From Malacoraja senta (taxonomy: Eukaryota): DNA of 64,000 nt. Position 1 is the stretch's first letter. Each line of letters opens with the position of its first letter. The position numbers were made by a program, and so were the translations under genes. Where the stretch lies: contig CM075990.1 of NCBI GenBank assembly GCA_038087875.1, positions 13,208,001 through 13,272,000 of the forward strand. Reading direction: 5' to 3'. The notes beneath the pieces are model-generated. The model was not told the origin of the DNA. It made no database searches and saw nothing but the letters and a program-made list of their open reading frames with translations. Positions 7,432-54,591 of this stretch are shown one piece after another.

Positions 7432-8090
7432 ATGCAAACGTCCCCGGGTGTTGTACCTCTTGTGAACAGGTTCACCCACTTAGAAGCTGTCGGGACAGAA
7501 GACGTTTTAACACTGAGCGGCAGACTGGCTTGCGATGCGAATAGGGCTGTTGAGCCCAAACCAAAAAGGCCAAAGTCAGGCAACGCCATTGTAGTGGGAG
7601 ACTCCATTGTGAGAGGTACGGACAGGGGTTTCTGCGGCAACAGACGGGATTCGAGGATGGTGTGCTGCTTCCTGGTGCCAGGATCCAGGATGTCACGGAC
7701 AGAGTGCAGAAAATCATGAAGGGCGAAGGTGAACAGCCGGAAGTGGTAGTGCATGTCGGCACAAACGATGTCGGAAAGAAGGGGATGAATATTCTGCAGC
7801 GTGACTTTAGAGAGCTCGGAAAAATGCTGAAAAGCAGGACCTCCAGGGTTGTTATCTCCGGTTTGCTTCCAGTTCCTCGTGCTGGCGAGAGCAGGAACGG
7901 GGAGATACGGGACCTGAATGTGTGGCTGAGGAACTAGTGCACGGGGAAGGGATTTAGATTCTTAGATCACTGGGATCTGTTTTGGAGTAAAAGGGAAGTG
8001 TACAAAAGGGATGGATTGCATCTTAACAGGTGGGGGACCAGCATTCTGGCAGGCAGGTTTGCCACTGCTACACGGGTGGTTTTAAACTGA
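7432..8090 (+). pseudogene. CR1 ORF1 C-terminal SGNH/GDSL esterase domain (frameshift ~7670, stop 7935-37)
   Basis: Motifs VVGDSIVRG, LPGA, VHVGTND and KRDGLHLN across two frames; ends VVLN* at 8090. Confidence 0.85.
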
Positions 8091-11000
8091 ATAAAGGGGG
8101 TGGGGTGTCGAATGGGATAGTTGAGGATGGAGTTAAAGGGAAAGGGTTTCTTAAATGTGTGAGCGTAGAGACAGAGGGGTGTAAAATGAGGGTAGAAGCA
8201 ATAGGTAGCAAGGTGAAAATTAAAAGTGGCAGGCAGACAAATTCAGGGCAAAAATCAAAAAGGGCCACTTTTCAACATAATTGTATAAGGGGTAAGAGTA
8301 TTGTAAAAACAAGCCTGAAGGCTTTGTGTCTCAATGCAAGGAGCATTCATAATAAGGTGGATGAGTTGAATGTGCAGATAGCTATTAATGACTATGATAT
8401 AGTTGGGATCACGGAGACATGGCTCCAGGGTAACCAAGGCTGGGAGCTGAACATCCAGGGATATTCAATATTCAGGAGGGATAGACAGAAAGGGAAAGGA
8501 GGTGGGGTAGCGTTGCTGGTTAGAGAGCAGATTAACGCAATAGAAAGGAAGGACATTAGCTTGGAGGATGTGGAATCGATATGGGTAGAGCTGCGAAACA
8601 CTAAGGGGCAGAAAACACTAGTGGGAGTTGTGTACAGGCCACCTAACAGTAGTAGTGGAGTTGGGGATGGCATCAAACAGGAAATTAGAAATGCGTGCAA
8701 CAAAGGTAAAATAGTTATAATGGGTGACTTCAATCTACATATAGATTGGGTGAATCAAATTGGCAAGGGTGCTGAGGAAGAGGATTTCTTGGAATGTATG
8801 CGGGATAGTTTTCTAAACCAACATGTAGAGGAACCAACGAGAGAGCAGGCTATTCTAGATTGGCTATTGAGTAATGAGGAAGGGTTAGTTAGCAGTCTTG
8901 TTGTGCGTGGCCCCTTGGGCAAGAGTGACCATAATATGGTTGAGTTCATTAGGATGGAGAGTGACATTGTTAATACAGAAACAAGGGTCCTGAACTTAAA
9001 GAAAGGTAACTTTGAGGGTATGAGAAGTGAATTGGCCAAGATAGACTGGCAATTGATTCTTAATGGGTTGACGGTAGATATGCAATGGAAGGCATTTAAA
9101 GACTGCATGGATGAACTACAACAATTGTTCATCCCAGTTTGGCAAAAGAATAAATCAGGGAAGGTAGTGCATCCATGGATAACAAGGGAAATCGGGGATA
9201 GTATCAAAACAAAAGATGAAGCGTACAAATTATCCAGAAAAAGCAGCCTACCAGAGGACTGGGAAAAATTCAGAGTCAAGCCGAGGAGGACAAAGGGCTT
9301 AATTAGGAAAGGGAAAATAGATTATGAAAGAAAACTGGCAGGGAACATAAAAACTGACTGCAAAAGCTTTTATAGATATGTGAAGAGAAAAAGATTAGTT
9401 AAAACAAATGTAGGTCCCTTGCAGTCAGAAACAGGTGAATTGATCATGGGGAACAAGGACATGGCAGACCAATTGAATAACTACTTTGGTTCTGTCTTCA
9501 CTAAGGAAGACATAAATAATCTGCCGGAAATAGCAGGGGACCGGGGGTCAAATGAGATGGAGGAACTGAGTGAAATCCAGGTTAGCCGGGAAGTGGTGTT
9601 AGGTAAATTGAATGGATTAAAGGCCGATAAATCCCCAGGGCCAGATAGGCTGCATCCCAGAGTACATAAGGAAGTAGCCCCAGAAATAGTGGATGCATTA
9701 GTGATAATTTTTCAAAACTCTTTAGATTCTGTAGTAGTTCCTGAGGATTGGAGCATAGCTAATGTAACCCCACTTTTTAAAAAGGGAGGGAGAGAGAAAA
9801 CGGGGAATTACAGACCAGTTAGTCTAACGTCGGTAGTGGGGAAACTGCTAGAATCAGTTATTAAAGATGGGATGGCAGCACATTTGGAAAGTGGTGAAAT
9901 CATTGGACAAAGTCAGCATGGATTTATGAAAGGTAAATCATGTCTGACGAATCTTATAGAATTTTTCGAGGATGTAACTAGTAGAGTGGATAAGGGAGAA
10001 CCAGTGGATGTGTTATATCTGGACTTTCAGAAGGCTTTCGACAAGGTCCCACATAAGAGATTAGTATACAAACTTAAAGCACACGGTATTGGGGGTTCAG
10101 TATTGATGTGGATAGAGAACTGGCTGGCAGACAGGAAGCAAAGAGTAGGAGTAAACGGGTCCTTTTCACAATGGCAGGCAGTGACTAGTGGGGTACCGCA
10201 AGGCTCAGTGCTGGGACCCCAGCTATTTACGATATATATTAATGATTTGGACGAGGGAATTGAATGCAACATCTCCAAGTTTGCGGATGACACAAAGCTG
10301 GGGGGCAGTGTTAGCTGTGAGGAGGATGCTCGGAGGCTGCAAGGTGACTTGATTAGGCTGAGTGAGTGGGCAAATACATGGCAGATGCAGTATAATGTGG
10401 ATAAATGTGAGGTTATCCACTTTGGTGGCAAAAACAGGAAAGTAGACTATTATCTGAATGGTGGCCGATTTGGAAAAGGGGAGATGCAACGAGACCTGGA
10501 TGTCATGGTACACCAGTCATTAAAAGTAGGCATGCAGGTGCAGCAGGCAGTGAAGAAAGCGAATGGTATGTTAGCATTCATAGCAAAAGGATTTGAGTAT
10601 AGGAGCAGGGAGGTTCTACTGCAATTGTACAGGGTCTTGGTGAGACCACACCTGGAGTATTGCGTACAGTTTTGGTCTCCTAATCTGAGGAAAAACATTC
10701 TTGCCATAGAGGGAGTACAGAGAAGGTTCACCAGACTGATTCCTGGGATGTCAGGACTTTCATATGAAGAAAGACTGGATAGACTCAGTTTGTACTCGCT
10801 AGAATTTAGAAGATTGAGGGGGGGATCTTATAGAAACGTACACAATTCTTAAGGGGTTGGACAGGCTAGATGCAGGAAGATTGTTCCCGATGTTGGGGAA
10901 GTCCAGAACAAGGGGTCACAGTTTAAGGATAAGGGGGAAATCTTTTAGGACCGAGATGAGGAAAACATTTTTCACACACAGAGTGGTGAATCTCTGGAAT

Positions 11001-11120
11001 TCTCTGCCACAGAAGGTAGTTGAGGCCAGTTCATTGGCTATATTTAAGAGGGAGTTAGATGTGGCCCTTGTGGCTAAAGGGATCAGGGGGTATGGAGAGA
11101 AAGCAGGTACAGGATACTGA
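8030..11120 (+). CDS. CR1 ORF2: APE endonuclease + reverse transcriptase (one +1 frameshift in G7 run 10818-10824)
   Basis: LNARSI, ITETWL, VYRPP, GDFN, SDH (APE); KSPGPD, NYRPVSL, LDFQKAFDKV, VPQGSVLGP, KFADD (RT). C-terminus continues in ORF 10857-11120. True start codon uncertain. Confidence 0.92.
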
Positions 11121-12479
11121 GTTGGATGAACAGCCATGATCATATTGAATGGCGGTGCAGGCTCGAAGGGCCGAATGGCCTACTCCTGCACCTATTTTCT
11201 ATGTTTATCTCCGTTCTAAATGGCTTACCCCTTATTCTTAAACTGTGGCCCCTGATTCAGGAGGTAAATAAAACCTTGGGAAATGTTGCTAATGAATAGA
11301 AGAATCGTAAATCGATCAAAATTGCTGGAAATCTGAACTGAAAGCAGAAAATACTGGAAGCAGTGGGATGACGTCTGTCGAACTAGGAACCAAGTTAATG
11401 TTTCAGGTTGGAAACCCTTCTTCAGAAGTGGCAGGAGACAAACCAAGTTAACTTCATTGCCAGTGCATGTTGAGCTGCAACTGCTTTACATCATATTCAG
11501 TGCAGATGAGGAGAGGATTTCTCAGGAAACAAATCATGCTGCAACCTTGAAACGATACCTGAAAAATTGGTACATAAACTTAAGAAGCAGTGCGGTGTAG
11601 TTTCATGAAATTGATTTGTGAATGAGGGTGTCCTTTAAGTTGTGTGTAAGATGAATGTATAGTTTAGAATTAAAGCTAATCTTGTTAAAAGACATGGTTC
11701 TGAATCTGGTTTATGATTCTGGGGGAGATTAACAAAGCTAGATTTCTCAGTCTGAAGAAGGATCTCGACCCAAAACATCACTTGTTCCTTTTCTCCAGAG
11801 ATGCTAGTCTGACCCTCTGAGTTACCCCACTTTTTGTGTCTAAGATTTCGAGGAGCTGGGGAATTCAGCTATTTTAGAAATGAGTTTAAATTTCATTCAT
11901 GATTTTAAAGCTAATAAAAGAAATCATCTATGTTTGCTTAATGCACCATGGTTTAATCTTGCATTGGAAGGACAGTTGTGCAGTAACACTCTTTTAATAC
12001 TGCACGCGAACATCAGTCTATTCTATAAATAAAACAAGACTAAAGTTTTGAATCTGAACGTGAGAATCAAATTAGATTTATTTGCAGACTGAACAGTGAG
12101 GAACAGTTTGTATCCTTCAGCTCAGTGATTGTATACTTGCCATGAAAGCTGAGAAGTGCAGTAATTGCGTTTGGTCTGTGATGCAGTGAGTTCGTGAATT
12201 TGATCACCCATGAAATAATGAGCAATTGGTGCAGATCAATTCATTCCCTTTTCACCAATACAAATAAACGTTTTATCGTGGCAGGAAATCTCAAAGACAG
12301 TCAAGAGCATTTTGATATTTTACAAGATATGTACTAGGCAAGACTGAGCGAGCTCAAACAGACAATTAACCTTTGCCAAGTGGCCTCGGCAAGGGTCATT
12401 GACTTTTCCATTTAGGAATGAGGAAAGCCTTTCTTTGGGAAATTTATTGGTATGTGGTTAACAATTATTGGTATGTGGT

Positions 12480-18536: not shown

Positions 18537-18736
18537 NNNNNNNNNNNNNNNNNNNNNNNNNNNNNNNNNNNNNNNNNNNNNNNNNNNNNNNNNNNNNNNN
18601 NNNNNNNNNNNNNNNNNNNNNNNNNNNNNNNNNNNNNNNNNNNNNNNNNNNNNNNNNNNNNNNNNNNNNNNNNNNNNNNNNNNNNNNNNNNNNNNNNNNN
18701 NNNNNNNNNNNNNNNNNNNNNNNNNNNNNNNNNNNN
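18537..18736. other. Assembly gap (200 N)
   Basis: N run. Confidence 1.
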
Positions 18737-33307: not shown

Positions 33308-33768
33308 CAAGGTTAATTCCTGGGATGGCGGGACTGTCATATGCTGAGAGAATGAAGCAGCTGGGCTTGTACACTCTGGTGTTTAGAAGGATGAGAGGAA
33401 ATCTTATTGAAACATATAAGATTGTTAAGGGTTTGGACACGCTGGAGGCAGGAAACATGTTCCCGATGTTGGGGGAGTCCAGAACTAGGGGTCACAGTTT
33501 AAGAAGAAGGAGTAAGCCATTTAGAACGGAGATGAGGAAAAACACTTTTTCTCACAGAGTTGTGAGTGTGTGGAATTCTCTGCCTCAGAGGGTGGTGGAG
33601 GCAGGTTCTCTGGATGCCTTCATGAGAGAGCTGGATATGGCTCTTAAAGATAGCGGAGTCAGGGGATATGGGAAAAAGGCAGGAACGGGGTACTGATTGG
33701 GGATGATCAGCCATGATCACATTGAATGGCTCGAAGGGCCGAATGGCCTACCCCTGCACCTATTGTCT
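33308..33768 (+). mobile_element. CR1 3' fragment (TATTGTC tail subfamily; also 46617-46905 +, 51508-51864 -, 58647-58885 -)
   Basis: ORF 33325-33696 is the CR1 ORF2 C-terminus. Confidence 0.9.
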
Positions 33769-33902
33769 TCTTCTTTCGTGTGGCGTGCACAGCCTAAAGT
33801 TGTTGGACAACTTGTTCTATTTGATCTTCCGTTTGTGCACGTCGAGTTGATTGCATTAGTCGAAACAGGGCGGACCACGTGAAGGTTGCAATCTTCCACC
33901 CC
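33769..33902 (-). mobile_element. Short non-autonomous retroelement with HDV-like ribozyme head and (GAA)n tail
   Basis: Interrupts the CCTATTGTCTATTG tail of a CR1, with GTCT duplicated (33765-68 / 33903-06). Minus strand starts GGGGTGG and ends ...CACACGAAAGAAGA. Confidence 0.75.
33849..33902 (-). ncRNA. Minimal HDV-like (delta) self-cleaving ribozyme, 54 nt
   Basis: GGGGUGG-AA-GAUUGCA-ACC-UUCACGU-GGU-CCGCCCU-G-UUUCGA-CUAA-UGCAAUC. P1 is 7 bp with a G1-U wobble, P2 a perfect 7 bp, P3 3 bp, L3 7 nt, P4 minimal with a UUCG loop, J4/2 CUAA. Confidence 0.8.
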
Positions 33903-35534
33903 GTCTATTGCTCTACACCGATGATAGACACAAAATGTTGGAGGAACTCAGCAGGTCGGGTAGCATCTCTGGAGAAATGGAATAGGCGACGTTTTGGTCG
34001 CGACCCTTCTTCAGACTCCAGCTTTATATCAAGTCATGAATAAAGTGTTCTTCCTCATCTTCAAAGCCTTCACAACAACATCTTGCAATCGCTGTTCAAC
34101 TTCACAATTTGCAAAATAAAACAGGAAGAGCAAAGACGAAGTTAAGAAGAGAAAAGAACATTTGTTGTTGCGTTTCAGTTAATTCATTTTAACCCTTGAT
34201 TAAATAAGTTGACCCCAAAAAGTGCCTGCATGAGCTTTGGCTTTGAAAAGGTAAATTTGCAGAGATGGGTTTGTAGCTACATTTATTAGATTTTCTTCTT
34301 TTAGATTTTATTTGGTTTTCTGGATGATACAGACCATTCCACCCATTGAATCCAGGATGGATTTCAGAGCTTTCTCAAACATATCATCACACCTTTCCTC
34401 ATATGCTGCCTTGTAACCTATTCTCTTTGACATCTATGGAGCGAAGGGAATGGGCAACGTTTCGGGCCGAAACCGAAGGGTTTTGGCCCGAAACGTTGCC
34501 TATTTCCTTCGCTCCATAGATGCTGCCGCACCCGCTGAGTTTCTCCAGCATTTTTGTCTACCTTCGATTTTCCAACATCTGCAGTTCCTTCTTGAACCTT
34601 TGACCAGTCAGTCTGAGGGATAGGTTTAATATTACCGCATAGGTCTAATAATAAGGAGTGGTGCAGCGGTAGAGTTGCTGCCTTACAGCGCCAGAGACCC
34701 GGGTTCAATCCCGACTGCCTGTACGGAGTTTGCACGTGCTCCCTGTGAGCACATATGTTTTCTCTGGGTGTTAGTTTCCTCCCACATTCAAACCTGAAGT
34801 TTGGAGGAAAGCTTTTTAAATTTTGGAACGCAGAAGACAGAATATCTTTGGAAGCCAGGGTTCCGGCTTGTTTTCGCTTCCATATTGTGTAATATGTCCT
34901 AGCTGTTTATTTCTGCATGTGACTAACCCAGGACCAAAGACCCAGGACTGCAGTTCTATGGAACGACTGACAGAGTTATCATGAGAAACAAAATGTCAGT
35001 GTTGGTTCGCAGTAACTCAGCAATGAGCTGCTGGCTGCAGACCTGATTTTTTTTCATGAAATGCTGTTGGAAGGTGAATAAAAGCAGCCTTTATACAGAA
35101 GGACTATGAACATCGCAAAGCTCTGTCATGTCGAATAAAAGAATGCAGCAAGCAAATTATGGCTTGGGCACCAGTAAAGAACTTATTCTATAGATTCATG
35201 TTGATGTACAAGCTTTTAGAATTGGCAGGTTGCATTTTGGTTGAACAATGAAATAATAGCACCCTTAACATCAAGGTTTCACAAGCTTTTACTGCTCTAC
35301 CTCATCTACAATGAGGCAGAGCAATATTATCAGACTCCTCTGTCAGAGCCATTATTCGGACTCCTCTGTTTTCACCCCCTCCCCCCCCCCCCACCCCACC
35401 CCCACCCAAATCACACCATTCTCCATTCCGATCATAAATATGGGATAATTTTTTTTTATAACTGTTCATCTTCAAACTTTTATCATTCTCCATCCTGATC
35501 CAATTTGTAAACTTAATTATACTTCAGCACTAGG

Positions 35535-54391: not shown

Positions 54392-54591
54392 NNNNNNNNN
54401 NNNNNNNNNNNNNNNNNNNNNNNNNNNNNNNNNNNNNNNNNNNNNNNNNNNNNNNNNNNNNNNNNNNNNNNNNNNNNNNNNNNNNNNNNNNNNNNNNNNN
54501 NNNNNNNNNNNNNNNNNNNNNNNNNNNNNNNNNNNNNNNNNNNNNNNNNNNNNNNNNNNNNNNNNNNNNNNNNNNNNNNNNNNNNNNNNNN
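54392..54591. other. Assembly gap (200 N)
   Basis: N run. Confidence 1.

Follow-up and report, generated by a model that had tools for sequence, protein, structure and literature searches.

The 134-nt insertion at 33769..33902 (minus strand) of the 64,000-nt stretch of Malacoraja senta DNA analyzed here (the window) is an internally deleted, bipartite non-autonomous derivative (SIDE) of a Vingi-type LINE, retaining ~80 nt from the start of that LINE and ~42 nt from its end. Its head is the parent LINE's own 5' end, and covariation across related families supports the prediction that nt 1-54 form a minimal HDV-like ribozyme that lacks P4 and is of CPEB3 type. An earlier reading of this DNA, which we call the first-pass annotation, had described a ribozyme-headed SINE; with a head 93% identical to a LINE 5' end, the element is instead a SIDE.

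The element interrupts the ATTGTCT-repeat tail of a 3' fragment of a CR1-type LINE (33316..33768, plus strand). The GTCT duplication that the first-pass annotation reported in this split tail is present at 33765..33768 and 33903..33906 (plus strand), and the uninterrupted form CCTATTGTCTATTG is seen in two other CR1 tails of the window. At 4 bp this duplication is unusually short and atypical for the family, in which the mode is 11-12 bp. The host fragment shares 76% identity with 10739-11200, where an element with an esterase-like ORF1 and an EN-RT ORF of 941 aa has its 3' end, and we take the host to be CR1 from this architecture. The copy at 7554-11200 (plus strand) is a CR1-type LINE of nearly full length; its ORF1 fragment is esterase-like and its EN-RT frame is open over 941 aa. 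No host exon was found among 99 ORFs scanned in the window, which contains two assembly gaps, each a 200-base run of N (18537-18736 and 54392-54591).

The 5' and 3' parts of the element match both ends of one LINE, with the coding region deleted. Behind the ribozyme head (33849..33902) lies the rest of the parent 5' UTR (33821..33848, minus strand); element nt 2-72 are 93% identical to LINE copy L130, and an older subfamily matches the LINE as far as about nt 82. Next comes a junction or linker of ~10 nt (33811..33820, minus strand) that matches nothing in the LINE ends we examined. It runs into the 5' arm of an inner hairpin of 7 bp (33807-33813 paired with 33797-33803), whose stem is kept and whose loop varies across the four A-type subfamily consensuses. 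The remainder (33769..33810, minus strand) is the parent 3' end, comprising the last ORF codons, a TAG stop, the 3' UTR and the (GAA)n tail, and shares 38 of 42 nt with LINE copy L122. The LINE ORF ends LDLQL* at the same TAG (33794-33796). In the youngest subfamily, the last bases of the 3' end are changed to CACACGAAAG, and in the window copy the (GAA)n tail may extend to 33766. The motif CGTGCACA at 33834-33841 can pair with TGTGCACG at 33784-33791; in the LINE, end-to-end pairing amounts to an 8-nt complement and is unexceptional, with 85 of 569 windows pairing as well.

Read on the minus strand from 33902, the head contains a nested double pseudoknot with P1, P2, P3 and P1.1 in the right order. 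P1 is GGGGUGG/CCGCCCU (33896-33902/33867-33873) with a G1-U36 wobble, J1/2 is AA (33894-33895), P2 is GAUUGCA/UGCAAUC (33887-33893/33849-33855), P3 is ACC/GGU (33884-33886/33874-33876), and L3 is UUCACGU (33877-33883), with U20 and G25 in place. G37 is followed by the P4 remnant U38-UUCG-A43 (33860-33865), one pair plus a tetraloop, and by J4/2, CUAA (33856-33859), which begins with the predicted catalytic C, C44, at 33859. P1.1 is a single pair, C22 (33881) with G37 (33866), and the predicted cleavage site is 5' of 33902. Every part of the pseudoknot that the first-pass annotation listed is present; its list omitted P1.1.

An HDV descriptor, run on both strands, matched the 64-kb window once, at 33902, and matched none of 30 order-1 Markov windows. 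The head scores below every Rfam cut-off: there was no match at curated cut-offs, and the only match in E-value mode was to HDV-F-prausnitzii (RF02682), covering exactly 33849-33902, at E 0.95 and 16 bits where the cut-off is 44. ViennaRNA, whose folding excludes pseudoknots, found P1 and no unusual stability (z 0.24). The assignment draws on the sequence itself, the descriptor against shuffled windows, the weak Rfam match and the sister-family covariation described below.

Copies of the element are numerous and begin at one place. The 134-nt sequence, which is the majority sequence of the youngest subfamily, has 46 exact copies in the 1.94-Gb assembly; a 28-nt ribozyme core, allowing at most two mismatches, has 8,201 matches (control, 0), and an exact 3' 19-mer has 5,538. 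The element is thus far from single-copy, a status that the first-pass annotation had named as counting against its reading. Among the 30 exact copies examined, 26 have an exact 9-14-bp duplication, many duplications start with AG or GA like the tail, tails are (GAA)n, and flanks are all different barring one duplicated pair. For a sample unbiased toward the head, we took the first 60 of the 5,538 3'-anchored places, all from one contig. Two proved to be LINE ends, 4 were headless, 2 were cut inside the head and 52 reached the start, so that 52 of 58 short copies extend to the predicted cleavage site. Removing two near-duplicates left 50 distinct full-length copies, with G at position 1 in 43. 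Target duplications of 7-13 bp flank 46 of the 50 and abut position 1 directly in 35, against 0 of 50 in mismatched-flank controls. Upstream of position 1 there is a T at -1 in 27 of 50 and no consensus beyond it. The uniform 5' ends at G1 and the coincidence of insertion boundary and cleavage site that the first-pass annotation proposed are therefore borne out, and the common upstream sequence that would have spoken against them does not appear among the 50 copies. With duplications and a repeat tail of its own, the element was amplified as a unit by target-primed reverse transcription (TPRT).

The same boundary, in DNA terms, appears in public sequencing data. All sampled words of the element occur in 16 public runs under six organism codes. 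In contig data, which report a DNA boundary and not RNA ends, depth drops more than tenfold at 33902 in four sequencing runs, two of which have loose ends with heterogeneous sequence there.

We found the parent by searching for the element's 3' end preceded by different upstream bases, which gave 116 matches, of which 100 were listed. In the LINE ends so recovered, the ORF terminates at the element's TAG. At least 150 copies of the family exist, ~90% identical to one another. We inspected the 5' region of eight copies: L130 and L128 open with the head in sense, L132 begins partway through it, L127 carries it in inverted orientation, and the other four are truncated. L130 and L136 together form one insertion of ~2.8 kb with an 11-bp duplication around the whole, and L128 with L135 (~3.1 kb) begins with the same head, in both cases in sense. 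The parent is ~3.1 kb long with a compact single ORF, encoding an APE endonuclease and reverse transcriptase (RT), that starts within ~110 nt of the 5' end. Pfam scans of the parent pieces identified endonuclease, RT and a weak zf-RVT domain; no RNase H was found in those scans or among the listed domains of P0001, an intact relative (1019 aa, 74% identity) in a public assembly.

Vingi has been described as a compact single-ORF sister of Ingi that lacks RNase H (PMC13708176). The parent matches this description, and we label it Vingi-type on that likeness rather than on a tree with named references; none of its protein-search matches is named Vingi. The first-pass annotation had proposed a Vingi- or RTE-type LINE as mobilizer. 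Mobilization by a LINE is supported, and this ~3.1-kb LINE has the same head and ~42-nt end that the annotation suggested seeking in an autonomous partner. Between the two types, the parent's motifs and its 5' likeness to Vingi-2_Gav point to Vingi, in a comparison that used no named RTE reference.

Two other searches did not reach the parent. The 30 top loci of a PF14529 search belong to an unrelated LINE family, with open frames of up to 1277 aa and no match to the element. This family, represented by L044, L046, L048, L049, L055 and L056, is young, has many near-identical frames of ~1277 aa, dominates the PF14529 matches, and is presumably I/Nimb-like. A negated pattern placed after the ribozyme gave 143 matches; nearly all of the 100 listed were indel variants, and the pattern did not lead to the parent, whose next ~25 nt are shared with the element.

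Some parent copies have rearranged ends. In four of ten parent 3' ends (L115, L117, L120 and L124), the head (about nt 5-80) lies inverted where the copy is truncated, and in three of the four a single duplication encloses the composite. The end of the inverted piece varies little among them and lies close to the short element's deletion junction, which suggests that second-strand priming or template jumping favors the A-rich stretch after the 5' stem. The inversion in L127 is an ordinary adjacent one. In L130 and L132, an AUG at nt 47-49 overlaps J4/2 and the 3' strand of P2, in frame with the LINE ORF and ~20 codons before the next AUG. It may be there by chance or may link folding to translation; the N-terminus of P0001 differs from the one this AUG predicts. 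We rejected a 20-codon mini-ORF from the AUG in J4/2-P2 as a feature of the short element, in which it is open in the youngest subfamily only.

The SINE-like size and copy number of the element, together with the ~10-nt linker unmatched in the LINE ends examined, would suit an independent SINE that had a small-RNA-derived head and borrowed only its tail from a LINE. The 93% match of the head to the LINE's own 5' end and the sense-orientation heads on full-length LINE copies contradict this, and the tRNA-, 5S- or 7SL-derived head and internal Pol III promoter of a SINE are missing, the head being LINE-derived. ARAGORN found no tRNA in the window, and the best Pol III A-box and B-box matches within the element have at least two mismatches, in agreement with what the first-pass annotation had said of such boxes. 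We regard an independent SINE origin as extremely improbable.

The genome contains two further Vingi-type families (families 2 and 3, the parent being family 1), whose heads have the same fold. Families 2 and 3 are ~48% and 40% identical, respectively, to the intact relative of family 1, and the family 2 head has a full P4. We aligned the heads by hand on structure, in two comparisons only, with segments gapless outside P4, and counted pairs from this alignment, as MAFFT alignments misplaced P2. Between families 1 and 2, both partners differ in 8 of 17 pairs and one partner in 1, with 7 pairs the same and 1 broken; between families 1 and 3, both partners differ in 8 of 17, with 9 the same and none broken. 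The helices thus covary across families as expected of an HDV-like ribozyme. All three families keep L3 (one base off in family 2), G37-U38 and C-N-A-A. Within the 134-nt family, we found no two-sided covariation among the 50 copies or between subfamilies, so the covariation that the first-pass annotation had suggested looking for among copies exists only against the sister families.

Family 2 (L180-L185) has its own internally deleted derivative of ~500 nt, with a ribozyme head and a (TAAA)n tail; 24 of 40 scored matches in the family 2 search were short and of that kind, and all six that were fetched were this derivative. L187 and L189 (also L124, L176 and L183) have 5' ends with tandem repeats of the ribozyme's first half, which in family 3 are 26-nt units present ~4 to 6 times. 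These repeats probably reflect repeated template jumps at the RNA's 5' end.

Variation of the head within the 134-nt family is of two kinds. Among individual copies, 26 of 50 keep all 18 pairs along with G1 and C44, 47 of 50 keep the catalytic C, and much of the loss falls on CpG sites; this looks like neutral decay after insertion, which is uninformative on selection. At the subfamily level, 84 full-length copies fell into five groups lying 2.1% to 5.0% from their own consensus outside CpG sites, and the window copy is the consensus of the youngest. Between subfamilies, the head differs only at J1/2, at U5-A in P1 (which becomes U5-G) and in J4/2 (CUAA or CGAA), a CpG-site change in one four-copy group being treated as noise. 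All spare the fold, and the lack of helix conservation among copies, against which the first-pass annotation had staked its reading, is not what we observed. Substitutions and indels are more numerous in the 3' 80 nt than in the head, and the terminal stem of the 3' domain is lengthened in the largest subfamily (z -5.1 vs -1.8 in the youngest). There are at least two, perhaps three, different deletion junctions. One locus (L111; G000:C20, ~6.84-6.86 Mb) is a ~3.1-kb tandem repeat of at least five units, each with a short copy of the second-junction subfamily.

These patterns bear on whether the ribozyme matters to the short element at all, as it might work in the parent LINE and be mere inherited baggage in a 134-nt RNA that is simply easy to reverse-transcribe. 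Short templates are seldom truncated in reverse transcription, no two-sided change has occurred within the family, and there are only three subfamily-level changes from which to judge selection. However, short length leaves unexplained why the RNA 5' end lies at G1 with no upstream sequence, 3 of 3 subfamily-level changes leave the fold intact although more has changed in the 3' 80 nt, and the whole head is kept by three differently joined short forms. We therefore consider inherited baggage improbable.

Taken together, the data are most likely explained by a Vingi SIDE with a self-cleaving P4-less head that is mobilized in trans. A transcript running into a copy would fold the head and be cut 5' of G1, freeing a unit-length RNA whose 5'-OH end would be protected by the pseudoknot. 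The Vingi EN-RT protein, acting in trans, would bind this RNA through its 3' motif and insert it by TPRT, with the tail-proximal CAYACG-type motif and the (GAA)n repeat as the likely protein recognition and priming site. Self-cleavage 5' of G1 is most likely by analogy with two precedents: R2 SIDEs self-cleave (PMC3414825), as do the NARTco/SIDER heads, the L1Tc precedent (PMC4035085). By the same analogy, read-through RNA would be the transcription source from which the element is released; for TPRT with a Vingi protein in trans, we infer it from the duplications, the tail and the shared ends.

Predicted cleavage 5' of G1 would account for full-length copies that start at G1 without inherited upstream sequence, and an internal promoter starting at +1 would give an equally precise 5' end. 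The head might thus act mainly as an internal Pol II promoter, with the pseudoknot serving chiefly as a stabilizing or protein-binding fold and cleavage slow or secondary. The first-pass annotation called the element promoter-less; the related L1Tc/ingi head, Pr77, however, combines a ribozyme with a Pol II promoter (PMC4035085), the HDV fold aids R2-based templates through stability and not necessarily activity (PMC11331408), and Kojima 2018 assumed Pol II transcription of bipartite LINEs (PMC5786205); in our head, moreover, P1.1 is weak and P4 is nearly absent. A promoter alone leaves it unexplained that three Vingi-type families retain the catalytic C, the G1 wobble, L3 and J4/2 while helices turn over, and that the element boundary is the cleavage site itself and not a nearby position. 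Promoter and ribozyme roles are also not exclusive. We judge a 5' end set by a promoter to be unlikely, though a serious alternative, and favor self-cleavage.

Among the top candidates scored, one of the scans using a stricter filter, no parent copy was both full-length and stop-free; every parent-family copy found among them is broken, though the assembly might lack an intact parent. In family 3, frames of 1014 and 1008 aa are free of stops, and the 3' pieces are 98% identical. The parent ends in CATACGCAAGAAG, whereas family 3 ends in GACACGAAAAGAAG in 4 of 4 cases. Older short copies have ATACGCA in 48 of 72 and ACACGAA in 1 of 72, whereas young-type copies have ACACGAA in 5 of 7, the other two differing by one base, at a CpG. 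The evidence leaves us evenly divided on whether the youngest subfamily now uses another, intact Vingi family, a case that fits the data while resting on two bases, with one extra A in family 3 and no shared stem. We give an equal chance to the wider proposal that the 134-nt element outlived its parent by changing these two tail-side bases to match a different intact Vingi family. In a fourth related LINE (L192 and L193; G000:C4794), a frame of 986 aa is free of stops and the end is of GAAGAAGA type; no ribozyme head was found upstream of those two loci.

The CPEB3 ribozyme is single-copy and lies in an intron of one gene, whereas the 134-nt element has thousands of copies. Even so, the core of the head equals CPEB3 position for position at U21, C22, A23-CGU26, G37 and U38 (bioRxiv 2022.09.22.508989). 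The window head shares its L3, single C-G P1.1, G37-U38 and numbering with CPEB3 (Rfam RF00622), and older subfamilies also share J4/2 CGAA; unlike CPEB3, the window head has no real P4, differs in its helix sequences and does not match RF00622. The CPEB3 crystal paper ties a weak P1.1 and a palindromic L3 to poor, slow catalysis (bioRxiv 2022.09.22.508989), which weighs against self-cleavage of the head. Heads from family 3 score 64.2, 63.8 and 40.7 bits against Rfam CPEB3 (RF00622), above the cut-off of 35 (L195:57-140, L191:156-239 and L189:69-152), and the family 2 head scores 30.9 bits, below it. By eye, the 5' end of the crocodilian Vingi-2_Gav differs from the Rfam CPEB3 consensus at ~2 of the first 38 positions. 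Because of the family 3 scores and this likeness to the consensus, we think that the mammalian CPEB3 ribozyme is probably a domesticated Vingi 5' end. The full scenario is more tentative, and we rate it as somewhat doubtful: a Vingi clade headed by CPEB3-type ribozymes, domestication of one as CPEB3, and a near-minimal unit (a 54-nt P4-less ribozyme plus ~80 nt) that outlived its parent via a partner switch. We found no CPEB3-Vingi connection in the largely open-access literature covered.

Ribozyme-headed SIDEs and their general mechanism are already known from R2 SIDEs and NARTc/RIME. Drosophila R2 SIDEs and R2/R1 hybrid SIDEs likewise join a 5' HDV-like ribozyme to a LINE 3' end, and the hybrids use another LINE's machinery (PMC3414825). 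R2 SIDEs are rDNA-specific, few and longer (R2Dwi_SIDE, 529 bp), with cleavage demonstrated in vitro (PMC3414825), whereas the 134-nt element is dispersed in thousands of copies, has an APE-type LINE parent, and its cleavage is predicted. The trypanosomatid NARTc, RIME and SIDER (L1Tc/ingi) are likewise short and dispersed with an HDV-like head, and belong to the sister clade Ingi; they are headed by the 77-nt Pr77, a demonstrated promoter (PMC4035085), whereas our head is 54 nt with almost no P4, from a parent in which no RNase H was seen, and in an animal host. Bipartite non-autonomous LINEs have been reported for RTE, Ingi, Vingi and R2 (PMC5786205), and Vingi-1_EE derivatives and Vingi-derived SINEs are, like our element, internal-deletion derivatives of Vingi (Kojima 2018, PMC5786205). 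The 5' end of Vingi-2_Gav has the same L3, CCCUGU and CGAA as the family here (PMC5786205 supplement), and SINE2-1_AMi ends in a similar ACACGAAA motif (PMC5786205). The list of six ribozyme-bearing clades in Kojima 2018 names R1, R2, R4, RTE and Ingi as well as LOA, and not Vingi (PMC5786205). Minimal delta-like and theta ribozymes likewise have the HDV fold without P4; nearly 99% are in phages, the eukaryotes searched being human, mouse and protist genomes (PMC10879173), whereas the minimal form here heads a high-copy animal retroelement. We found no description of the 134-nt family in the same largely open-access literature, and a P4-less CPEB3-type head on a dispersed 134-nt Vingi SIDE with thousands of copies appears to be undescribed. 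The unusual features are the P4-less head, the possible switch of LINE family and the likely Vingi origin of the CPEB3 ribozyme.

Vingi-1 is under development for RNA-only gene insertion (PMC13708176), and a natural 134-nt passenger delimits the minimal cis signals and the latitude with which different families read them. The element also gives a eukaryotic context to the P4-less HDV-like ribozyme, whose minimal forms have so far come almost only from phages. With family 3 heads above the CPEB3 cut-off and the likeness of Vingi-2_Gav to the consensus, the origin of the memory-linked CPEB3 ribozyme is now testable. Finally, Vingi joins the LINE clades that carry ribozymes at their 5' ends, and the three families in one genome offer natural covariation.
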